Assembly: GCA_965199825.1 (NCBI GenBank)
Contig: OZ241329.1
Coordinates: forward strand, 768,001 to 832,000
Length of the DNA stretch: 64,000 nt
Reading direction: 5' to 3'
Source: Bdellovibrionales bacterium
GTDB lineage: Bacteria > Bdellovibrionota > Bdellovibrionia > Bdellovibrionales > UBA1609
Under the pieces are notes generated by a model, which did not search any database, was not told the origin of the DNA, and was given only the letters and a program-made list of their open reading frames with translations. How positions within the stretch are numbered: the first letter of the stretch is position 1; every line of letters begins with the position of its first letter. Position numbers and translations under genes: made by a program. Shown in pieces: positions 29,545 through 60,316 of the stretch.

Positions 29545-29621
29545 GTATTCAAATATCCTAAAAGCTCAGACATGCGGTCGCCATTAGGCGATCCGAACTC
29601 GCTTTTAGGACATTCGAATAC
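29545..29621 (+). repeat. REP-like hairpin, copy A
   Basis: AAAAGCTCAGACAT...CCGAACTCGCTTTT inside a long imperfect inverted repeat; reverse orientation to copies B and C. Confidence 0.75.
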
Positions 29622-29825: not shown

Positions 29826-30317
29826 TTAACGGTTGTTACAGCGCAGATCTACAATTTTGTCGTAGCGCTCATTCGTATTAGGCAATATTCGAATACTGAG
29901 TGTATGAAATTCGACTCCCTGAGCGACGGTGCTTTCGTCTTTCGAGTTAAAATCAGGCCAGTGATTACGCCAGCTGTATCCAAATTGCTCACAAATTCTG
30001 CTAAAAGCGTCATACGTCGACTTTACAACAAACTCTTGCCCATTTTCCTGAATCCTTACGTTTTTCAATAAAGCACCTCGAGACGAAGGCTCGATCGATT
30101 CGACGACAAAAGAGTTATCTAGCTGCATGACCGCTTGATCATAGGCCTTGACGATTTCCGTCGCTGGGACCTCTGCCGATTGGCTCGAAGTAGTCTTAAC
30201 TGAAATTGCGTTGGCAACGCCTGCGACCATAAAATTCAATGTAAGTATCAATAAATAATATTTTACAGATTGAGCTTTTCGTTGATTCATTGAGAACCTC
30301 TTTTGTTTAGGTCTCAT
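29826..30317 (-). CDS. Hypothetical secreted protein
   Basis: Signal-like segment ending VANA; true start probably downstream. Confidence 0.55.
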   Translation of the reverse strand: MRPKQKRFSMNQRKAQSVKYYLLILTLNFMVAGVANAISVKTTSSQSAEVPATEIVKAYDQAVMQLDNSFVVESIEPSSRGALLKNVRIQENGQEFVVKSTYDAFSRICEQFGYSWRNHWPDFNSKDESTVAQGVEFHTLSIRILPNTNERYDKIVDLRCNNR

Positions 30318-30435: not shown

Positions 30436-31110
30436 TCAAAATTTAGTCACCGAAAAACTTTGGGACATCAGTGGCATAGGCGCAGTCATTTTTGCAGCGA
30501 AGGACTGCTTTTGCTCCGGGCACGATTTTTTGAGTGGATCGTTTTTTGATAAAGCGGTTCGAGTGTTCTCCACCATTGTTTCTTGGATGGTTGCCGTACG
30601 CCTTAATCGCTGACTCAGGAGATCACGCGAGCGTTCGAAGTCTTTAAATTCTTCCAAAGTCATAGCAAACCGGATGTCCACCTGAAGTTCATCCCCAGCG
30701 TTATAAAGTCGTGCCCGCTCTTTGAGTTTTTTTGCAGGCGACGCTTTTGCCACTTCTTTCTCAAGTGCGCGCTTGGAGCCCTGTGCAAGTTTCAACCAAT
30801 GCTCGGCATTTTTAGGCGTGATCACACTGCAAATTCGATTGGCTTTAGAGATCGAAAGCTGCCCCGAAGCGATTTGTAATTTGAGCTCAGGGATCAAGGC
30901 ACATTTTTTAGCAACTTTATTAAAAATACTGATGAGCTCTTCAGTCATATTGAGCTTGTTGCAGGTAAAATCAAAAAGTGATCGACTCCCATAAACATAA
31001 TGGGTTTTTGCTCGCCAAACATTTTCGATTGAAAGCACCAATTCCGCATCTGAAATATTTTTGACCGACACAGCCTTGAGTACGCGAAAATAAATTTTTT
31101 GATGATCCAC
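30436..31110 (-). pseudogene. Truncated HNH-family paralog lacking the HNH domain (may still be expressed)
   Basis: Near-identical to 36218..37042 up to NDPLKKSCP, then divergent; no HNH motif. Confidence 0.8.
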
Positions 31111-31346
31111 AATTCGCTCCTACTTAATAAAGCGAAATCTATCAAAAAAAATATCCACTGCAAATTGATATAAATAAATATTGTAGGTTATTGATCGGGC
31201 GAAATTTCCGGTGGTGGCTTTTACTTTGTCAAAAAAATTTGAGCGGGCACGACTCTTTACGTTTAACGCTGAACTCAGCGACACTAACCTATTTTAAAAA
31301 ATCCCAATCTCAACTCGAACACGATCTCTAGACTAAGGAATTAAGA

Positions 31347-31423
31347 GGCTTAAAAGCGAGTTCGGCTTGGCACGCGATTGCGCAGGCAATCGAGTGCCAA
31401 ACGCATGTCTGAGCTTTTAAGCC
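31347..31423. repeat. REP-like hairpin, copy B
   Basis: GGCTTAAAAGCGAGTTCGG...ATGTCTGAGCTTTTAAGCC with inner GATTGC-gcag-GCAATC stem. Confidence 0.75.
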
Positions 31424-32898
31424 CCTTGATTCCCCATTGGCTGACTTAAAAACTGCGAGCCATCAAAACTAACGATTCTTTTATCACCATCAACGATAGT
31501 GGCGACATGGACGGGTCTGCTCCAAATTGCAAAAAGATTTTGTAAGGTCGCATTCATATACTCGCCCTGCATTTCGATACCTTCGTACATGTGCTGAAGC
31601 AGCAGCTCACCTCGATTGTTAAAGTTGGCATCGACCACCGAAATTATGGGTTGGCCAAAATTGGTAAGCTGAAACAAAAACTTCTTTTTGATCAGCTCAA
31701 AATCGCGGGTGTCGACTTCGTATTGGTTGGTGCGCTTATTAAATTTGTAAACAAACATTTTATTTTCGACACAGAACTCTTCGGTCAAAAATTCATCGAT
31801 AAACGTGACGTCGTTGTAGTGCTTGCGGACTTCAAAAATTTTTTTGCGGCCAAGGCCTGTTTGTTTGTCCCAGTTCTTTTTTAGAGAAATGTCGTTGCAC
31901 TCTGACCATTCTCTGCCGAATTGGCCTTTGTTCCAGCGCATCTCGATATTGCGAAAGAGTTCGATGCCCACTTTATAGGGATTGAATCCTGTGGGCGACA
32001 TCGCCATCGTGCCCGCATGACGATCGGCAAAATCAATAATTTCTGAGTCATCCACAATTCGCTCGGTCATCAATTTGGAGTGCCAGTAGGAGGCCCAACC
32101 TTCGTTCATGATTTTGGTCATTCCTTGAGGCGCAAAATAATAGGCCTCATCACGAATGATCGACATAATGTCTTGCTGCCAATTTTTAAGAGGTGCGGTG
32201 TGAATCAAAAATTTGAGAACATCACGCTCGGGAGGAGGGGCAGCAGTCATCTGGTCTTCGCGCTTTTGCATTTCGCGCAAGTATTCGGGCGGATTGATGT
32301 AACCTTCCATATAGTCGCGGTGCACTTTGAGTTTTCCAGGCGCCGACTTTTCACTGGGTGGAGGAAGCACATCTTCTTTTATTTTAATTTGTGAATAGGG
32401 AGAGTAGCGATCGATCAAATTTTCGATGCTTAAGCACTTATCAATAAAATCTTCGACCACATCCACACCCATCCGATCAATGTAGCGGCGGATGCGGGTG
32501 GAGTGATTGGCCATTGCATCCATCATTTTGCGATTGGTCTGCGAAAACCACATATTGTTTTTAAAAAAATCGCAGTGGCCAAATACATGGGCCATCACCA
32601 ATTTTTGATCGATAAATTCATTGCCCTCCATCAGATAGGCGTAACAAGGATCATTGTTGATCACGAGCTCATAGATTTTTGACAATCCATACTCATAACT
32701 TTTGGACATCCGGTCGTATTCCATTCCAAAACGCCAGTGAGGGTAGCGCACCGGAAATCCGCCATAAGAGGCGATCTGATTCATTTGCTCATAAGTGACG
32801 AGCTCAAAAATCGTGTCAAAAAAATCGAGGCCGACATCTGCGGCAATTTTGCAGATCTTTGCGCGCTCGCGTTCCAGTTCGGGAGTGAGGTTTGCCAT
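31417..32898 (-). CDS. spoVR: SpoVR family protein
   Basis: RYPHWRFG, IYELVINNDP, AHVFGH, TKIMNEGWASYWH. Confidence 0.95.
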   Translation of the reverse strand: MANLTPELERERAKICKIAADVGLDFFDTIFELVTYEQMNQIASYGGFPVRYPHWRFGMEYDRMSKSYEYGLSKIYELVINNDPCYAYLMEGNEFIDQKLVMAHVFGHCDFFKNNMWFSQTNRKMMDAMANHSTRIRRYIDRMGVDVVEDFIDKCLSIENLIDRYSPYSQIKIKEDVLPPPSEKSAPGKLKVHRDYMEGYINPPEYLREMQKREDQMTAAPPPERDVLKFLIHTAPLKNWQQDIMSIIRDEAYYFAPQGMTKIMNEGWASYWHSKLMTERIVDDSEIIDFADRHAGTMAMSPTGFNPYKVGIELFRNIEMRWNKGQFGREWSECNDISLKKNWDKQTGLGRKKIFEVRKHYNDVTFIDEFLTEEFCVENKMFVYKFNKRTNQYEVDTRDFELIKKKFLFQLTNFGQPIISVVDANFNNRGELLLQHMYEGIEMQGEYMNATLQNLFAIWSRPVHVATIVDGDKRIVSFDGSQFLSQPMGNQGA

Positions 32899-33987
32899 TT
32901 ATTTTCCCTTGCCGAGAAAATCCTTTATCGACTGCAAAATGCGATCGCGGTTTTCTATACGGCTCATCACAAGGTTTTCTTCATTGGTAAAAGATTTTTC
33001 AAGATCCTTAATAAACTGACCACTGCCGTATTTGCTCTCGACCTGGCCATAGCCAAACATATTTGTTTTTGGCAAAAAGAATTCTTTTAGCAATGCAATA
33101 CAGGCCTTGGTGTCCTCACCGCTCCAATTGTCGCCATCACTAAAATGAAATGGATAAATGTTCCACTGACTTGGAGGGTAATCGGTCTCAATAATTTGTT
33201 TACACAATTTGTAGGCCGAAGAAATCAGAGTTCCGCCCGATTCGGATGTCGAAAAAAACGTTTTCTCGTCAACCTCTTTGGCTGCGGCATCGTGAATAAT
33301 AAAACGGCTGTCGAGTCCTTTGTAGTTTCGTCTGAGCCACGTGTTGATCCAAAAACTCTCGAGGCGAACGATCTCTTTTTGCTCGTCACCCATCGACCCT
33401 GAGACATCCATCATATAAATCACGACCGCATTGGATTGCGGCTTTACCGATTTTTTTGAAGCGCGATACCGAAAATCTCTGCGGATCGGCACGATCACCG
33501 GATTGTTTGGATCATAGTTGCCGGTAGACATATAGCGCTTGAGAGCTTCTTTATAGGAGGATTTAAAATGGCGCAGCGACTCGGGCCCCACTTGCGATCG
33601 ACCGGTATAAGAATGAGTAACGCTATCAATATTTTTATTACCGCGCGACTGAATCCGCGGAAGCTCAAGCTCCTCGCCTAAAATATCGGCAAGCTCTTCA
33701 AAGCTAAGTTCGACTTCGAGCTCATGCTCACCGGGCTGATCGCCGGCTTCGCCCTTGCCCGACTCTTCAACTCCGTCGCCGGGTTGACCTTGTCCTTGGC
33801 CAACTCCACCCGATTGTTTTGGCCCATAACGAAAGCGCGGAATTTCAATCTGTGGGATCGGAATCTTGACGTACTCATTTTCGCGCTTACCGATCATTTC
33901 GCCATGGGTGACATACTTTTTGAAATTCTCTTTGATCCGTCCCCGCACAACATCGCGAAATCGACTGTGATCTTCTCGAATTCCCAT
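32899..33987 (-). CDS. yeaH: YeaH/YhbH (DUF444) vWA protein
   Basis: [24 protein letters not shown]; position between prkA and spoVR. Confidence 0.92.
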
Positions 33988-33991
33988 AAAG

Positions 33992-36079
33992 CTATTTTTT
34001 ATCTTTCACATCACCACGTGCAAAAATGCTGGCCACATAATGGAGCACATCGATTGCCGAGATCTCATCGTAACCGAATTCTTTGATCAATCGAGTTTTG
34101 ACGATGTCGATTTTTTCTTGAGTGTCTTTATCTGTAACAGAGCTCACCAAGGACGTGAGCTTAATGCTGTCTTTTTGATCTTCGAAAAGTTTGAGTTCTA
34201 AAGCCCGATGCAGTCGCTCATTTGTTTTGTAATCAAATTTTTTACCTTCGAGAGACAATGCTCCGATGTAATTCATAATCTCACGGCGAAAATCATCTTT
34301 GCGTGATTCTGGAATTTCAATTTTGTCTTCAATTGATCGCATCAATCTTTCATCCGGCTCATCGTCCTGTCCGGTAAACTGATTTCGTACGCGCTCTTTT
34401 TGTGTGTAAGCCTTGACGTTGTCGATATAGTTTCCACACAAGCGTTGAAGTGCACCTTCGTCAGCCGAAATGGCTCGCTGCACTTCGGATTTAATGATCT
34501 CCTCATACTCTTGCTTCACCACACTTAAGAGTTCGCGGTAATCGGTTTTTAATTCTTCATTCGCAATCAGAGAGTGGTGCTTTAACCCAGCCTCGAGCTC
34601 ATTCATCACCATAAAAGGATTTACCGATCCCTTATTTCTTTGTTGCGCCATCACGATTGCGTTTGAAAGTTTGTCTTGAATGTAGCGAGGAGAAATCCCT
34701 CCAAGCCCTTCGCGTTTTGCATCTTTTCTTAACTCTTTGATATTGTCTTCGGTGTAGCTCGGAAGACTTTTGCCATCATATAATTTAAGTTTTTGAAGAC
34801 GGGTGAGATTTGCTTTTTTTGGTTTTTCTAAACGAGTGAGAATGGCCCACATCGCACCCATTTCAACCGTGTGCGGTGCAATGCTCACACCGCGAAGAAC
34901 CCGGCTATTAAAATCCTTGCGATAGATTTTAACTTCGTCTCGCAATTTTGTGATGTAGGGAATATCAATTTTGACGGTGCGATCCCTTAAGGCTTCCATA
35001 AACTCATTGTCTTGAAGTTTGCGATACTCAGGCTCGTTGGTATGCCCAATAATCACTTCGTCGATATAAGTTTGAGCAAACTTTTTTGGTTTAATTCTGT
35101 GCTCTTGCGAAGCTCCCAAAAGATCATACAGAAACGCGACATCGAGTTTTAAAACTTCAACAAATTCAATCATGCCGCGATTGGCGATATTGAATTCACC
35201 ATCAAAGTTAAATGCTCTTGGATCAGAATCCGATCCATATTCGGCGATTTTGCGATAATTCATATCGCCGGTGAGTTCGGTGGAGTCTTGGTTTTTTTCA
35301 TCTTTGGGTTGAAAGGTTCCGATTCCTACCCGATCGGCTTCGCTTAACACCAATCGTTTGACTCGCACGTGGCTCAAAACTTTTGAAACATCGCCATTAT
35401 AAATATCCATCAGTTTTTTAAAAATAAATCGGCTTGGCGGACAGAGCTCTCCTTTGATCTGCACCCGAAACTCGGTTTTGTTTCCGCGATTAAGTTCTTC
35501 ACAAATTTTGGCGCGCATCTCTTCAGGAATCAGTAGCAGAGGCTCTTCGTGCATCGGACTTGGAAACACTTTGACGTTGGGTCCCAGCACATCTTCAAAG
35601 CGGCCCTCTTCATCAAACCACTCGAAAGTATAAAGGGCACCCTGATCGGTTTTTGCGTATTTCTCCACACCTTGTTTGAGCAAGCGACAGATTGTCGACT
35701 TCGCACTTCCCACAGGGCCATGAAGAAGAATGACTCGCTTTTCGGTTCCATAGCCCAAGGCCGCAGCTCTCAAAACATTGACCAATTTCATCAACGGAAT
35801 TTCTGCGCCGAACACAGCGTCGCGTCCGTCATTTTCTTCGTCATCAAAAAAGCGATAATGGGTCATTTGTTTTTTAACGTCGGTGTAATTCTCAACACCT
35901 TTTTCGATCACAAGATCATACATGCGCTGAAAGGCATTGCGCGTGACCTTTGGATTTTCACGAATCAAATTGAGATAATCATCAAATGTTCCAGACCAAC
36001 TGAGATCTTGAAACATTTTGTTATCTTGTAAGGACTTGATGAGTGCGGAATAATCCACACGACCTGAATTGCCCGCCAT
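33992..36079 (-). CDS. prkA: PrkA/YeaG serine kinase / AAA ATPase
   Basis: [33 protein letters not shown]. Confidence 0.95.
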
Positions 36080-36217: not shown

Positions 36218-37042
36218 CTAGTGGCTATTCTGATGGTGGGCACGATGATGCCCCGAACAAAGAATTGTTAGGTTATCTAGTTCGTTCGTCCCGCCTTCTA
36301 ATATCGGTTTGATATGATGAATATCAATATGTCGCCGCTGCTGGCAGCGCACGCCGTTTTCATCAACATGCATGCATTGACTAGCGCATTTGTGCTGAAC
36401 TTGACGCTTGAGGATGACAGTCATTTTTTGTGAGCCAGTTTTCACAGGTGGGCACGATTTTTTTAGTGGGTCGTTTTTTGATAAAGCGGTTCGGGTGTTA
36501 TCTACCATCGTTTCTTGAATCGTTGCCGCGTGTCCTAATCGCTGACTCAAAAGATCACGCGAGCGTTCGAAGTCTTTAAATTCTTCCAAAGTCATAGCAA
36601 ACCGGATGTCCACTTGGAGTTCATCCCCCGCGTTATAAAGTCGTGCACGCTCTTTGAGTTTTTTTGCGGGTGAGGCTTTTGCCACTTCTTTTTCGAGAGC
36701 ACGCTTGGAGCCCTGTGCAAGTTTCAACCAATGTTCGGCATTTTTAGGAGTGATCACACTGCAAATTCGATTGGCTTTGGAGATCGAAAGTTGGCCCGAC
36801 GCAATTTGTGATTTGAGCTGTGGAATGACGGCACATTTTTTAGCAATTTTATTAAAAATGCTGGTGAGCTCTTCAGACATATTAAGTTTGTTGCAAGTAA
36901 AATCAAAAAGTGATCGACATCCATAAACGTAATGGGTTTTTGCTCGCCAAACATTTTCTATTGATAAGACCAATTCAACATCTGAAATATTTTTGGCCGA
37001 CACAGCTTTGAGTGCTCGAGAATAAATTTTTTGATGATCCAC
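36218..37042 (-). CDS. HNH endonuclease with helical (DUF222-like) N-terminal region
   Basis: QC..C..IHHIKP..GG.N...NL..LCSGHHRAHH; GTG start after AGGAG. Confidence 0.88.
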   Translation of the reverse strand: MDHQKIYSRALKAVSAKNISDVELVLSIENVWRAKTHYVYGCRSLFDFTCNKLNMSEELTSIFNKIAKKCAVIPQLKSQIASGQLSISKANRICSVITPKNAEHWLKLAQGSKRALEKEVAKASPAKKLKERARLYNAGDELQVDIRFAMTLEEFKDFERSRDLLSQRLGHAATIQETMVDNTRTALSKNDPLKKSCPPVKTGSQKMTVILKRQVQHKCASQCMHVDENGVRCQQRRHIDIHHIKPILEGGTNELDNLTILCSGHHRAHHQNSH

Positions 37043-37391
37043 AATTCGCTCCTATTTAATAAAGCGAAATATATCATAAAAAATATGCGCTGCAAATTGA
37101 TATAAATAAATATTGTAGGTTATTTCTCAAGCGAAATTTCCGGCGGTGATATTATCTTTATCAAAAGTTTGAGCGGGCACGATACTTGATCGCTAATTCA
37201 AACCGAAACATTTCGCACACCAGTAGACAGCGCTAGCCCTGGTTACAAATCATAGATGATAAAAACGGTGTGGTTTGTTATTCAACCGAAAAAATGATTT
37301 CGTGCATGAAGGTGAAATAAGATATTGGAAAATGTCGCTCAAGCGAGCGGGCACGATCACCGCTACTCATAGATCAGGAATGAAGATCCTG

Positions 37392-37447
37392 AAAAGCGAG
37401 TTCGGCTTGGCATAAGATTGCGAAAGCAATCGAATGTCTGAGCTTTT
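37392..37447. repeat. REP-like hairpin, copy C
   Basis: AAAAGCGAGTTCGGCTTGGCA...GATTGC-gaaa-GCAATC...ATGTCTGAGCTTTT. Confidence 0.75.
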
Positions 37448-37454
37448 AAGCATC

Positions 37455-40587: not shown

Positions 40588-40902
40588 AATTTTTGCGGCA
40601 TTTTGATTTTGAACTGATGTTGATCGTGAGCACGACAGCTTTGTGGGCACGTAAAAATCTCGAGAGGTGTCAGTCTTTAAATGACTGGGCACGATCAGTT
40701 GAAACTATCGACTCAACAAGAGTTTAGAACACCCTTAAAGATTTCGTTAGAAGCGGGCACGATAATATCTCCGGCGATGTTATTTTATGGGTCAATTAAA
40801 AATTAGCGGGCACGATAAATTCTATCTGATTATAATACCGCGGAGATGTCATTCAAGCTTCTCTCCCACATCATGTGCACGATCAAAGGCTTCTCGAAAA
40901 AA

Positions 40903-41785
40903 GTGGGCACGACAACTTACTGCGGGCACGACAACTTACTTGCGGACACGATAACTTACTTGCGGACACGATAACTTACTTGCGGACACGATAACTTACT
41001 TGCGGACACGATAACTTACTTGCGGACACGATAACTTACTTGCGGACACGATAACTTACTTGCGGACACGATAACTTACTTGCGGACACGATAACTTACT
41101 TGCGGGCACGATAACTTACTTGCGGGCACGACAACTTACTTGCGGGCACGACAACTTACTTGCGGGCACGACAACTTACTTGCGGGCACGACAACTTACT
41201 TGCGGGCACGACAACTTACTTGCGGGCACGACAACTTACTTGCGGGCACGACAACTTACTTGCGGGCACGACAACTTACTTGCGGGCACGACAACTTACT
41301 TGCGGGCACGACAACTTACTTGCGGGCACGACAACTTACTTGCGGGCACGACAACTTACTTGCGGGCACGACAACTTACTTGCGGGCACGACAACTTACT
41401 TGCGGGCACGACAACTTACTTGCGGGCACGACAACTTACTTGCGGGCACGATCACTTACTTGCGGGCACGATCACTTACTTGCGGGCACGATCACTTACT
41501 TGCGGGCACGATCACTTACTTGCGGGCACGATCACTTACTTGCGGGCACGACAACTTACTTGCGGGCACGACAACTTACTTGCGGGCACGACAACTTACT
41601 TGCGGGCACGATCACTTACTTGCGGGCACGATCACTTACTTGCGGGCACGATCACTTACTTGCGGGCACGATCACTTACTTGCGGGCACGATCACTTACT
41701 TGCGGGCACGATCACTTACTTGCGGGCACGATCACTTACTTGCGGGCACGATCACTTACTGTGGGCACGACAACTTACTTGCGGC
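40903..41785. repeat. 20-bp tandem array, consensus TGCGGGCACGACAACTTACT
   Basis: 42 full units at 40921-41760 plus terminal variant units. Confidence 0.98.
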
Positions 41786-58749: not shown

Positions 58750-59280
58750 TCGTGCCCGCTTTTTTTTGGGCGGTTGAGTTTGTCGTGCCCACATCTTTAT
58801 TTGATTGGCCGAAAAAATCTTTGTTTTTAAAAAGTTTGGTGTTTGTGGAACCATTTCCTTTTTTTGCCTGGCGTGGATTTGAAGCTAAAAATTTTGTCGT
58901 GCCCCCTTTGTGTTTCGGTTGGGCCGAAGTTTTTCGTGACCGTCTTTAGATTCATTAGAGCGAATTTTTTTGTTGTGCCCATTCCTTTAAATCAAATGGA
59001 ATCTTTGTTTTTAGAAGTTTGGTATTTTGTAGGATCATTTAATTGTCATGTTCGGATTTTGTTGGTGGCCGAAGTCTGTCGTGCCCGCCTTGAGATTGTT
59101 TTTTTGTCGTGCCCGCTTCTTAAAATCATAAGGAATTTTTTGTTCTTAGAAGTTTGGTGATTTATAGGAGACTTTACTTTTCTTACCCAGCGCAGATTTA
59201 AACCTAAAGAATTTTGTCGTGCCCATCTTTAGATTCATGAGACCGAATTTTTTGTCGTGCCCGCACAAATTTTCTTGACG
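58750..59280 (+). repeat. Degenerate cluster of TCGTGCCC motifs upstream of the HNH gene
   Basis: Motif at 58750, 58783, 58897, 59079, 59107, 59217, 59255; variants near 58934 and 58973. Confidence 0.88.
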
Positions 59281-59473: not shown

Positions 59474-60316
59474 ATGGATCATTCAAAAATTCATCTCAAT
59501 GCGTTGACCGCTGCTGATGCTCATCGCAAAACCGAAATGGAATTGCTCAATGCTTTAGAGCTTGTTTGGAAAAACAAAACCTTTTCGCAATATGGTTGCC
59601 GATCGTTGTTTGAATATTCAACCAAACACCTCAAATTATCCGAAGAGATGGCAAGTATTGTAAACAAAATTGCAAAAAAATTTACTGAACTTCCTGAACT
59701 TAAAGCAGGCATGGAGTCTGGTGAACTTTCACTCTCAAAAGCGAATCGAATCACTGCGGTTGTCACAAAAGAAAATGTGGATCACTGGATGAATTTGGCC
59801 AAGGGCACCAAACGCAATCTCGAAAAACAAATTTCCATGGTCCAACCCGAGAAAGCAATTCCGGAGCGGGCACGACATCAAAAAGCGGGCGACACTTTAC
59901 GAGTCGCGATTTCTTATTCGATGACTCAAGAGGAATTTGCAATGTTTGAACGGACACAAGATCTTTTGAGCCAAAAATTAAAGCGACCGGCCTCGATCGG
60001 TGATGTTCATCTTGCAGCTCTTAAAGAGCTCCAGCAAAAGCTCGACCCGTTAGAAAAACCGATTCGCCAAAAATCAGCGGGCACGACAAAATTGACCATC
60101 GCACTAAAGCGAAAAATCCATCACAACCTGAAAAGTCAGTGCAGTCATATTGATCAATCCGGCGAGCGTTGCCCCGCGCGACGCCACCTTGATGTTCATC
60201 ACATCATTCCTAAATCGCAAGGCGGATCAGATAACGAAGAAAACCTGACCCTTTTATGTTCAGGACATCATCGTGCTCACCATCGAAAGGCTAGGAACTC
60301 CCAAAAAGCGTTTTGA
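59474..60316 (+). CDS. HNH endonuclease, divergent paralog of 36218..37042
   Basis: MDH.KI, YGCRSLF, LS.SKANRI, LDVHHIIP..GG.D...NL.LLCSGHHRAHH. Confidence 0.9.
   Translation: MDHSKIHLNALTAADAHRKTEMELLNALELVWKNKTFSQYGCRSLFEYSTKHLKLSEEMASIVNKIAKKFTELPELKAGMESGELSLSKANRITAVVTKENVDHWMNLAKGTKRNLEKQISMVQPEKAIPERARHQKAGDTLRVAISYSMTQEEFAMFERTQDLLSQKLKRPASIGDVHLAALKELQQKLDPLEKPIRQKSAGTTKLTIALKRKIHHNLKSQCSHIDQSGERCPARRHLDVHHIIPKSQGGSDNEENLTLLCSGHHRAHHRKARNSQKAF

Follow-up and report, generated by a model that had tools for sequence, protein, structure and literature searches.

An 8-nt word bounds the block shared by two copies of a multicopy HNH gene in a Bdellovibrionales genome and is a putative binding site of the encoded protein and a putative preferred break point

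The window analysed here is a 64,000-nt stretch (C1:768001-832000) of the 2.84-Mb genome, labelled G000, of a Bdellovibrionales bacterium. It contains three copies of an HNH family gene, and copy 1 lacks the HNH domain. Positions preceded by C1 are those of the contig and all others are those of the window (Table 1). The question raised by this locus is why copies 1 and 2 are alike over a block that begins and ends on the same short word. When the window was compared with itself using blastn, 30518-31252 and 36450-37182 were 89.25 % identical over 735 bp, and both ends of both segments fall on GGGCACGA in the same orientation, as the sequence-only reading had stated.

The fall in identity at the two motifs is sharp. 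In 20-nt bins kept in register, copies 1 and 2 share 18, 19 and 17 of 20 nucleotides on the inner side of the left motif and 4, 4, 8, 3 and 4 of 20 on its outer side; outside the right motif the values are 9, 6, 6 and 6 of 20. Of the 24 nt beyond the left (linker) motif, 4 are identical; the corresponding count is 20-24 in five further close pairs, including two with the same dS as copies 1 and 2. The earlier claim that identity collapses immediately outside the block is thus correct for the abruptness of the fall, but approximately 40 nt of linker homology continues past the left motif and a hairpin block lies beyond the right motif. The short remnant that had been noted outside the block is CAGTCATTTTT, which lies at 30483-30493 in copy 1 and at 36418-36428 in copy 2 and is read in frame (KMT) in each; from its frequency in the genome, the probability of a chance occurrence is p ~3e-5 per 30-nt window. 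The hairpin forms a second common block (31336-31422 and 37376-37451; 77 %, E 3e-13), found ~85 nt past the right motif in copy 1 and ~195 nt past it in copy 2, and the stretch between the right motif and the hairpin block is unalignable.

Copies 1 and 2 differ with a dS of 0.44 and a dN/dS of 0.085. Judged by these values, the duplication is old and the N-terminal half is under purifying selection, and the edges of the block would therefore also mark where function ends. Of the 15 amino acid differences, 6 seem to be derived in copy 1 and 4 in copy 2, and 5 are ambiguous. The chance that the two copies are a mis-joined repeat created by the assembly is negligible, as they differ at ~10 % of sites and contigs from run X1 span both copies into unique flanks with no other letters; nothing in favour of an artefact was found.

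Table 1. Features of the window that are relevant to copies 1, 2 and 3
Feature	Position	Strand	Details
Copy 1	30436..31110	-	224-aa ORF, DNA-binding half only; residues 1-198 homologous, HNH absent
Decayed family linker past site	30478..30517	-	Includes in-frame KMT remnant; probable true truncation near 30478-30483
Linker site, copy 1	30518..30525	+	GGGCACGA; codes SCP on gene strand; left end of shared block
Internal motif, copy 1	30709..30716	-	ERAR codons, +394, opposite orientation; no break there; copy 2 has one mismatch
Promoter-side site, copy 1	31245..31252	+	~12 nt outside TTGAC-like box; right end of shared block
Hairpin repeat, copy 1 side	31336..31433	.	98 nt, z -8.1; shared with copy 2 and HNH-only remnant, C1:1029.7k
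spoVR, DUF444 and prkA genes	31417..36079	-	Between copies 1 and 2, outside the repeat
Copy 2	36218..37042	-	Intact 274-aa gene; predicted ParB/KorB-type HTH 16-127, ribbon-helix-helix 144-195, HNH 203-274
Terminal motif, copy 2	36238..36245	+	Within HRAHH codons; in 25/27 copies
Linker site, copy 2	36450..36457	+	Left end of shared block
Promoter-side site, copy 2	37175..37182	+	Right end of shared block
Second upstream site, copy 2	37349..37356	+	Copy 1 has a degenerate counterpart near 31318; copies unalignable from here to the promoter-side site
Hairpin repeat upstream of copy 2	37376..37451	.	77 % alike to the copy 1 side
Orphan word array	40687..41784	+	~44 units of 20 bp included; no adjacent family gene
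Copy 3 upstream sites, seven	58750..59262	-	Seven occurrences of the word
Copy 3	59474..60316	+	Intact 280-aa gene; internal motifs at 59868 and 60079

The sequence-only reading had also proposed that a role of the motif as an end point would explain the loss of the HNH domain from copy 1. In copy 1, the loss is not at the motif itself. A DNA profile of the family aligns the copy 1 linker as far as 30478, ~40 nt beyond the motif, and detects no HNH-like DNA downstream of the linker, placing the loss ~35-40 nt past the word. The simplest reading is that copy 1 is a duplicate of the whole element, including the hairpin, from which the HNH part was lost near 30478-30483 and in which the 24 nt beside the site were replaced or scrambled; replacement of a site-to-site unit within an older locus fits too. 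A deletion from the linker motif to the terminal motif was considered for copy 1 and rejected, as its tail lacks the AYCAY-type sequence that trails the terminal motif elsewhere. In strain X3, which was sequenced at low depth, copy 2 was recovered together with its flanking sequence and HNH domain, and, among the differences listed within the block, 11 of the 19 checked carry the copy 1 letter. This might reflect exchange between copies 1 and 2 or the presence of a third, related copy. The flanks of copy 1 are not covered in X3, but the depth is too low for this to carry weight. The low-depth X3 contigs also include a joint that goes back from 36274 to 30517, and the contig of a paralog appears to fit this joint better than a circle would.

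On the gene strand, the word reads TCGTGCCC. It occurs 60 times in the window, where 1.44 are expected, and 522 times in the genome compared with ~55 expected from order-2/3 Markov models, and its one-mismatch neighbours are near expectation. The genome contains 27 full or near-full paralogs, which are dispersed, and one HNH-only remnant. All 27 paralogs have the word upstream; it is found reversed at +394 in 19 of them (and displaced by an insertion in one more), at +585 in 14 and reversed at +605 in 11. The conserved DPLxK ends at the start of the word, and the block common to copies 1 and 2, which runs from the promoter-side site to the linker site, consists of the promoter and the N-terminal half. 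The possibility that the +585 and +605 forms represent inversion of the linker was rejected, as both half-sites, separated by 12 nt, occur together in one copy and in the remnant. Several further features recur upstream of family members. A ACACCGCCGGA-like word found ~25-45 nt after the motif is a recurrent upstream module (e.g. C1:246440, 512617, 1249027 and 2565798, and near 37140 in the window). Distant members (G000, G056, G068 and G035) have in common a TTGAC box with T-runs after it, at ~-200 to -240, and a CATGNTA box close to -35 to -60, and copies 1 and 2 have a shortened form of this layout.

Homologs of the protein are named from Pseudobdellovibrionaceae and Bdellovibrionales. Of the 121 genomes of the order that were searched, 68 contain the family, frequently as many copies; the genus is represented by this genome alone. 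The 139 full-length loci that were fetched are a chosen sample and not a census, with L103 (identical to L102) and the two-gene loci L050 and L056 excluded. A GC-rich palindrome was found in the linker window of 38 of these 139 loci (14, 13 and 11 in controls), and the same palindromic core was present both upstream and in the linker in 15 of the 139, compared with 1, 0 and 0 for control windows, so that 124 lack a perfect pair. An earlier word-based count gave 13 of 89 loci paired compared with 0, 0 and 2 in controls, and 2 of 267 when upstream regions were swapped. The words of the relatives are palindromes of 10-20 bp, many with a CCCGGG centre. The word in the window is one arm of a CCCGGG palindrome, the full form of which does not occur in this genome, i.e. 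only half-sites are found here. In G035, neighbouring elements use three different words, each of which is matched within its own element. Words with an RRCGYY-type centre are found in one recognition-helix clade and most of the CCCGGG or CGCGCG words in the other. This agreement between word and clade is consistent with recognition of the word by the helix, but kin share both and it is no proof. In L100, L083, L084, L165 and L046, the upstream site repeats 10-25 bp of the linker coding flank plus the palindrome, as if copied. A scan of the genome contigs for an empty site using a single protein recovered only four unrelated HNH matches.

Half-genes in the relatives provide a view of where breaks occur. 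The HNH-only locus L154 (G040) is 95.5 % identical to the full-length L044, over a match that begins precisely at the palindrome, and the 29 bp that lead up to and include its palindrome are 96.6 % identical to the upstream site of L044. In this locus, the outer flank of the promoter site is joined to the HNH side of the linker site, and, from the sequence of its junction, L154 is the product of a deletion between the two sites. It is the sole exact, recent junction found. The HNH-only remnant at C1:1029.9k is most like copy 2, with a match that starts at +584, at the linker motif, though the two are only 65 % alike, and it adjoins the same hairpin as copies 1 and 2. As this remnant starts at the linker word and has the same hairpin, it appears to be the reciprocal of copy 1. 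In G056, six N-only loci, which are 73-80 % alike and were counted as one event, terminate in their own palindrome, either intact or differing by one nucleotide; wherever the alignment extends that far, they cease to resemble one another 3-41 nt beyond it. Two HNH-only loci, L191 and L192, begin at a palindrome or close to one, a close parent for comparison being absent, and L186 is N-only and ends ~20 codons past a near-palindrome. Site-to-site tandem units of 107 and 123 bp were found in G026, and in-frame units of 129 bp in G040. However, not all truncations involve a site. Four of the eight internal HNH-only loci that start in or near the linker are without one (L033, L158, L195 and L197), four more HNH-only loci start elsewhere (L182, L196, L199 and L200), and no matching palindrome is found at the ends of the N-only L146 and L147. 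Loci at contig ends were excluded from these truncation counts (L018, L153, L155-157, L161, L162, L176, L178, L179, L193, L194, L201, L202, L204 and L205).

The sequence-only reading had regarded the motif as a recombination or conversion end point. The recombination part gains from the half-genes and units that end at the word across the family (L154, the C1:1029.9k remnant, the G056 loci and the G026 and G040 units), but the conversion part does not, as four long identity tracts among the 27 paralogs have no inner end at an internal motif. Their inner ends are at +287, +138, +662, +2 and +128, two outer ends are just past the terminal motif, where homology stops anyway, and conversion starting at motifs was therefore not seen in these tracts. 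Of six short identity runs, one has its end just past +394. In word-less relatives, too, the similarity of close pairs reaches no further than the TTGAC box on one side and the stop codon on the other, the places where the word sits in this genome, and these shared limits indicate that the edges are partly set by selection. One recent conversion tract was observed between paralogs at C1:875607-876128 and 904586-905107 (approximate positions), which are 100 % identical from ~+290 to +809 and ~90 % identical in the first 200 nt. For two copies, the trees differ as if domains had been swapped at the linker, with weak support. No joint at a motif and no circle were found among the joints listed (15 of 35) in contigs of runs X1 and X2 that match the window, noting that contigs drop rare forms, nor among the joints listed for the contigs of all three runs.

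The word is also found away from the gene. Approximately ten further loci in this genome are orphan tandem arrays of the word, with units of 16-20 bp and no family gene nearby, and nearly all of the high-copy short-period arrays of the chromosome contain it. Two interpretations of these arrays were tried and rejected, namely that they are clean whole-gene deletions, as the arrays listed have no terminal tail, and that their phase reveals a fixed nick position, as junctions are at either edge of the word or in the spacer. A separate repeat, GAACGAAGGTA, is found in 61 places on C1 and often abuts motif arrays.

The predicted structure of the protein bears on whether it could recognize the word. 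The model of copy 2 has a mean pLDDT of 90. Foldseek returned nothing at E <0.001 for this model, its E values being above 0.04, with weak rows for ParB, Spo0J and Noc (E 0.08-0.56). In a wide structural search, residues 16-127 matched ParB (Z 7.3, rmsd 3.4, 98 aligned), KorB (Z 6.9) and Spo0J (Z 6.4), residues 144-198 matched the ribbon-helix-helix proteins TraM (Z 4.8) and MazE (Z 4.4), and residues 203-274 matched the HNH domains of IscB, a phage nickase (GVE2), the Gme nicking enzyme and McrA. All of these are below the Z 8 caution line and the model-based matches are treated as leads. When two chains of residues 1-197 were modelled together, the predicted homodimer scored 0.73, whereas no control exceeded 0.00. 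This mark of 0.73 is reached by 20 of the 30 solved pairs and by 1 of the 23 single chains. The runs agree in at least 90 % of contacts with a pLDDT of at least 84, and the interface includes the strand 141-150. The N-terminal half is therefore predicted to consist of a ParB/KorB-type helix-turn-helix and a dimerizing ribbon-helix-helix.

In domain searches, PF01844 (HNH) was matched by 62 of 63 aligned members. PF02720 was above the cut-off in none of the three window copies and was matched weakly by one of the 63 members (E 0.0017). No ParBc CTPase domain was detected in the family proteins, and the ParB-fold match begins at residue 16, leaving no room for an N-terminal CTPase domain. Pfam and NCBIfam yielded only HNH, with no HUH/Y1 transposase and no tyrosine or serine recombinase in the family proteins. 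The IscB model NF040563 matched with the HNH part only (29-32 bits, cut-off 175), leaving the PLMP and RuvC parts of IscB unmatched. Carriage of the family by phage was considered and rejected, as the N-terminal half had no match among 50,697 phage records.

No description of this system was found in the open-licence PMC and bioRxiv literature, and several known systems resemble it in part. DUF222/13E12 proteins (PF02720 plus PF01844) are, like the family here, multicopy and combine an N-terminal domain with HNH, and atlas neighbours of the N-terminal half include a cluster with 12 % DUF222. The family here is probably a distant DUF222/13E12 relative. The 13E12 genes are rearrangement hot spots and inversion breakpoints in Mycobacterium tuberculosis, and the breaks are ascribed to homologous recombination; the available part of that account mentions no short site (PMC13157036). 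ParB and Noc bind 16-bp palindromes as two-fold pairs and the centre of the NBS is CCCGGG (PMC7383237). The putative likeness of the family to ParB, Noc and KorB lies in the best structural match of residues 16-127 and in the palindromic words of the relatives. The family differs in that no CTPase domain was detected, the protein is fused to HNH and multicopy, the site lies within the gene itself and this genome has half-sites only. In REPtrons (RAYT/TnpA-REP), a nuclease gene is flanked by its own short repeats, which are also dispersed and in tandem (PMC3116915, PMC3337134 and PMC8266576). The family gene is likewise flanked by its own short repeats, also dispersed in the genome. However, the family here is HNH rather than HUH/Y1, has many gene copies, has the word within the reading frame and has co-oriented half-sites where REPs are hairpins. 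The likeness to free-standing HNH homing or nicking endonucleases (I-HmuI type and phage HNH nickases) and to IscB lies in the HNH fold, where the matches of copy 2 include the GVE2 and Gme nicking enzymes and IscB. Phage HNH nickases are site-specific (PMC3592412). Homing enzymes are known for sparing the locus that encodes them, whereas the family gene carries several copies of its own word.

The best explanation for the locus, to which we assign a probability of about 0.55, is that the 8-mer at both ends of the block is the protein's own putative binding site and a preferred, though not the sole, break point, and that copy 1 stems from an old duplication of a multicopy HNH gene, of which it retains the half without the nuclease. 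Here, we infer binding, self-repression, pairing of the two sites and a role for HNH in the breaks. A dimer of the N-terminal half would bind the promoter and linker sites and repress its own promoter. The two sites would be short repeats, maybe held together beside a nuclease, and repair or slippage between them would delete or duplicate the stretch that they frame. Selection would keep the harmless binding half up to its site, and the sequence beyond would decay; for copy 1, the actual loss would be ~40 nt past the site.

It is possible, though doubtful, that selection and passive slippage are sufficient, i.e. that the word is a selected binding site at the edge of the useful region and the breaks are random or repeat-mediated and do not involve the protein. 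This would fit the dS of 0.44 with a dN/dS of 0.085, the family-like linker that runs ~40 nt past the word in copy 1, and the conservation of DPLxK, which stops where the word starts. It would also fit the breaks of word-less relatives at the same functional limits, the array junctions at either word edge or in the spacer, and the many truncations without sites. However, the 4 of 24 identities in the linker after the word are below the approximately two-thirds expected from dS, and nearly all of the high-copy short-period arrays hold this non-palindromic word. The clean site-to-site deletion in L154 also argues for more than passive events, though slippage between 16-bp repeats could also yield L154.

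Catalysed excision and reinsertion, in which the protein pairs and nicks the sites and a circle of promoter and binding domain reinserts, with copy 1 being such a unit in an older decayed locus, is unlikely. Reciprocal products are present in one lineage, namely copy 1 (N-only) and the C1:1029.9k remnant (HNH-only), which both break from copy 2 at the linker word beside the same hairpin, and some upstream sites copy 25-45 bp of linker context (L100 and L083). HNH fold neighbours include nickases, which are described for phage (PMC3592412). The inner identity of 89 % exceeds the outer 77 %, but the latter fits the same age as a dS of 0.44. Moreover, a circle would leave the hairpin behind, no recombinase domain was found in the family proteins and no motif joint was among the contig joints listed. 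Least credible of the biological alternatives, and very improbable, is target-site duplication, in which the entire gene would move as a target-specific element, inserting at the word and leaving a duplicate of it at both ends, and copy 1 would have used the internal word as a false end. The 27 copies are dispersed, the similarity of close pairs begins 6-8 nt ahead of an upstream word and ceases 4-14 nt beyond the terminal word, the flanks being unrelated, and a pair in G026 ends exactly at its own palindrome. However, in most word-bearing relatives the second site sits in the linker and not at the end, the orphan arrays do not have the signature of the terminal tail, and some pairs are alike beyond the terminal word.

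We put forward only as a speculative suggestion that the family is an undescribed selfish element of Bdellovibrionota, in which a ParB-type dimer would pair two private in-gene sites and HNH would nick, leading to site-to-site deletion, duplication and spread of the site. Such an element would shed nuclease-less repressors and promoterless nuclease stubs, and its recognition helix would re-program the site by lineage. The family, present in more than half of the genomes searched in the order, is annotated only as HNH endonuclease. For each member, the paired sites allow a DNA target to be predicted directly from the locus itself. If the protein drives site-to-site events, this would be a new means by which a small nuclease propagates repeats and reshapes a chromosome, and the family would offer a natural set of ParB-like nucleases that differ in their 10-20 bp targets. 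The findings may also bear on the related DUF222/13E12 genes at mycobacterial inversion breakpoints.

Finally, other repeats in this genome were recorded. The 98-nt hairpin repeat has ~10 copies, which include those at 29557-29616, 31336-31433 and 37376-37451 in the window and those at C1:982.8-984.6k, 1029.7k and 1818.8k. Copy 1 together with a 163-aa ORF (29826-30317) is flanked by two oppositely oriented hairpin copies, and a 322-aa ORF at C1:983440-984405 is framed likewise. The repeat content of two other contigs is unlike that of the chromosome, with a 60-bp tandem array present twice on C5 (21 kb), at a distance of 12.2 kb, and an array of 320 bp on C2.
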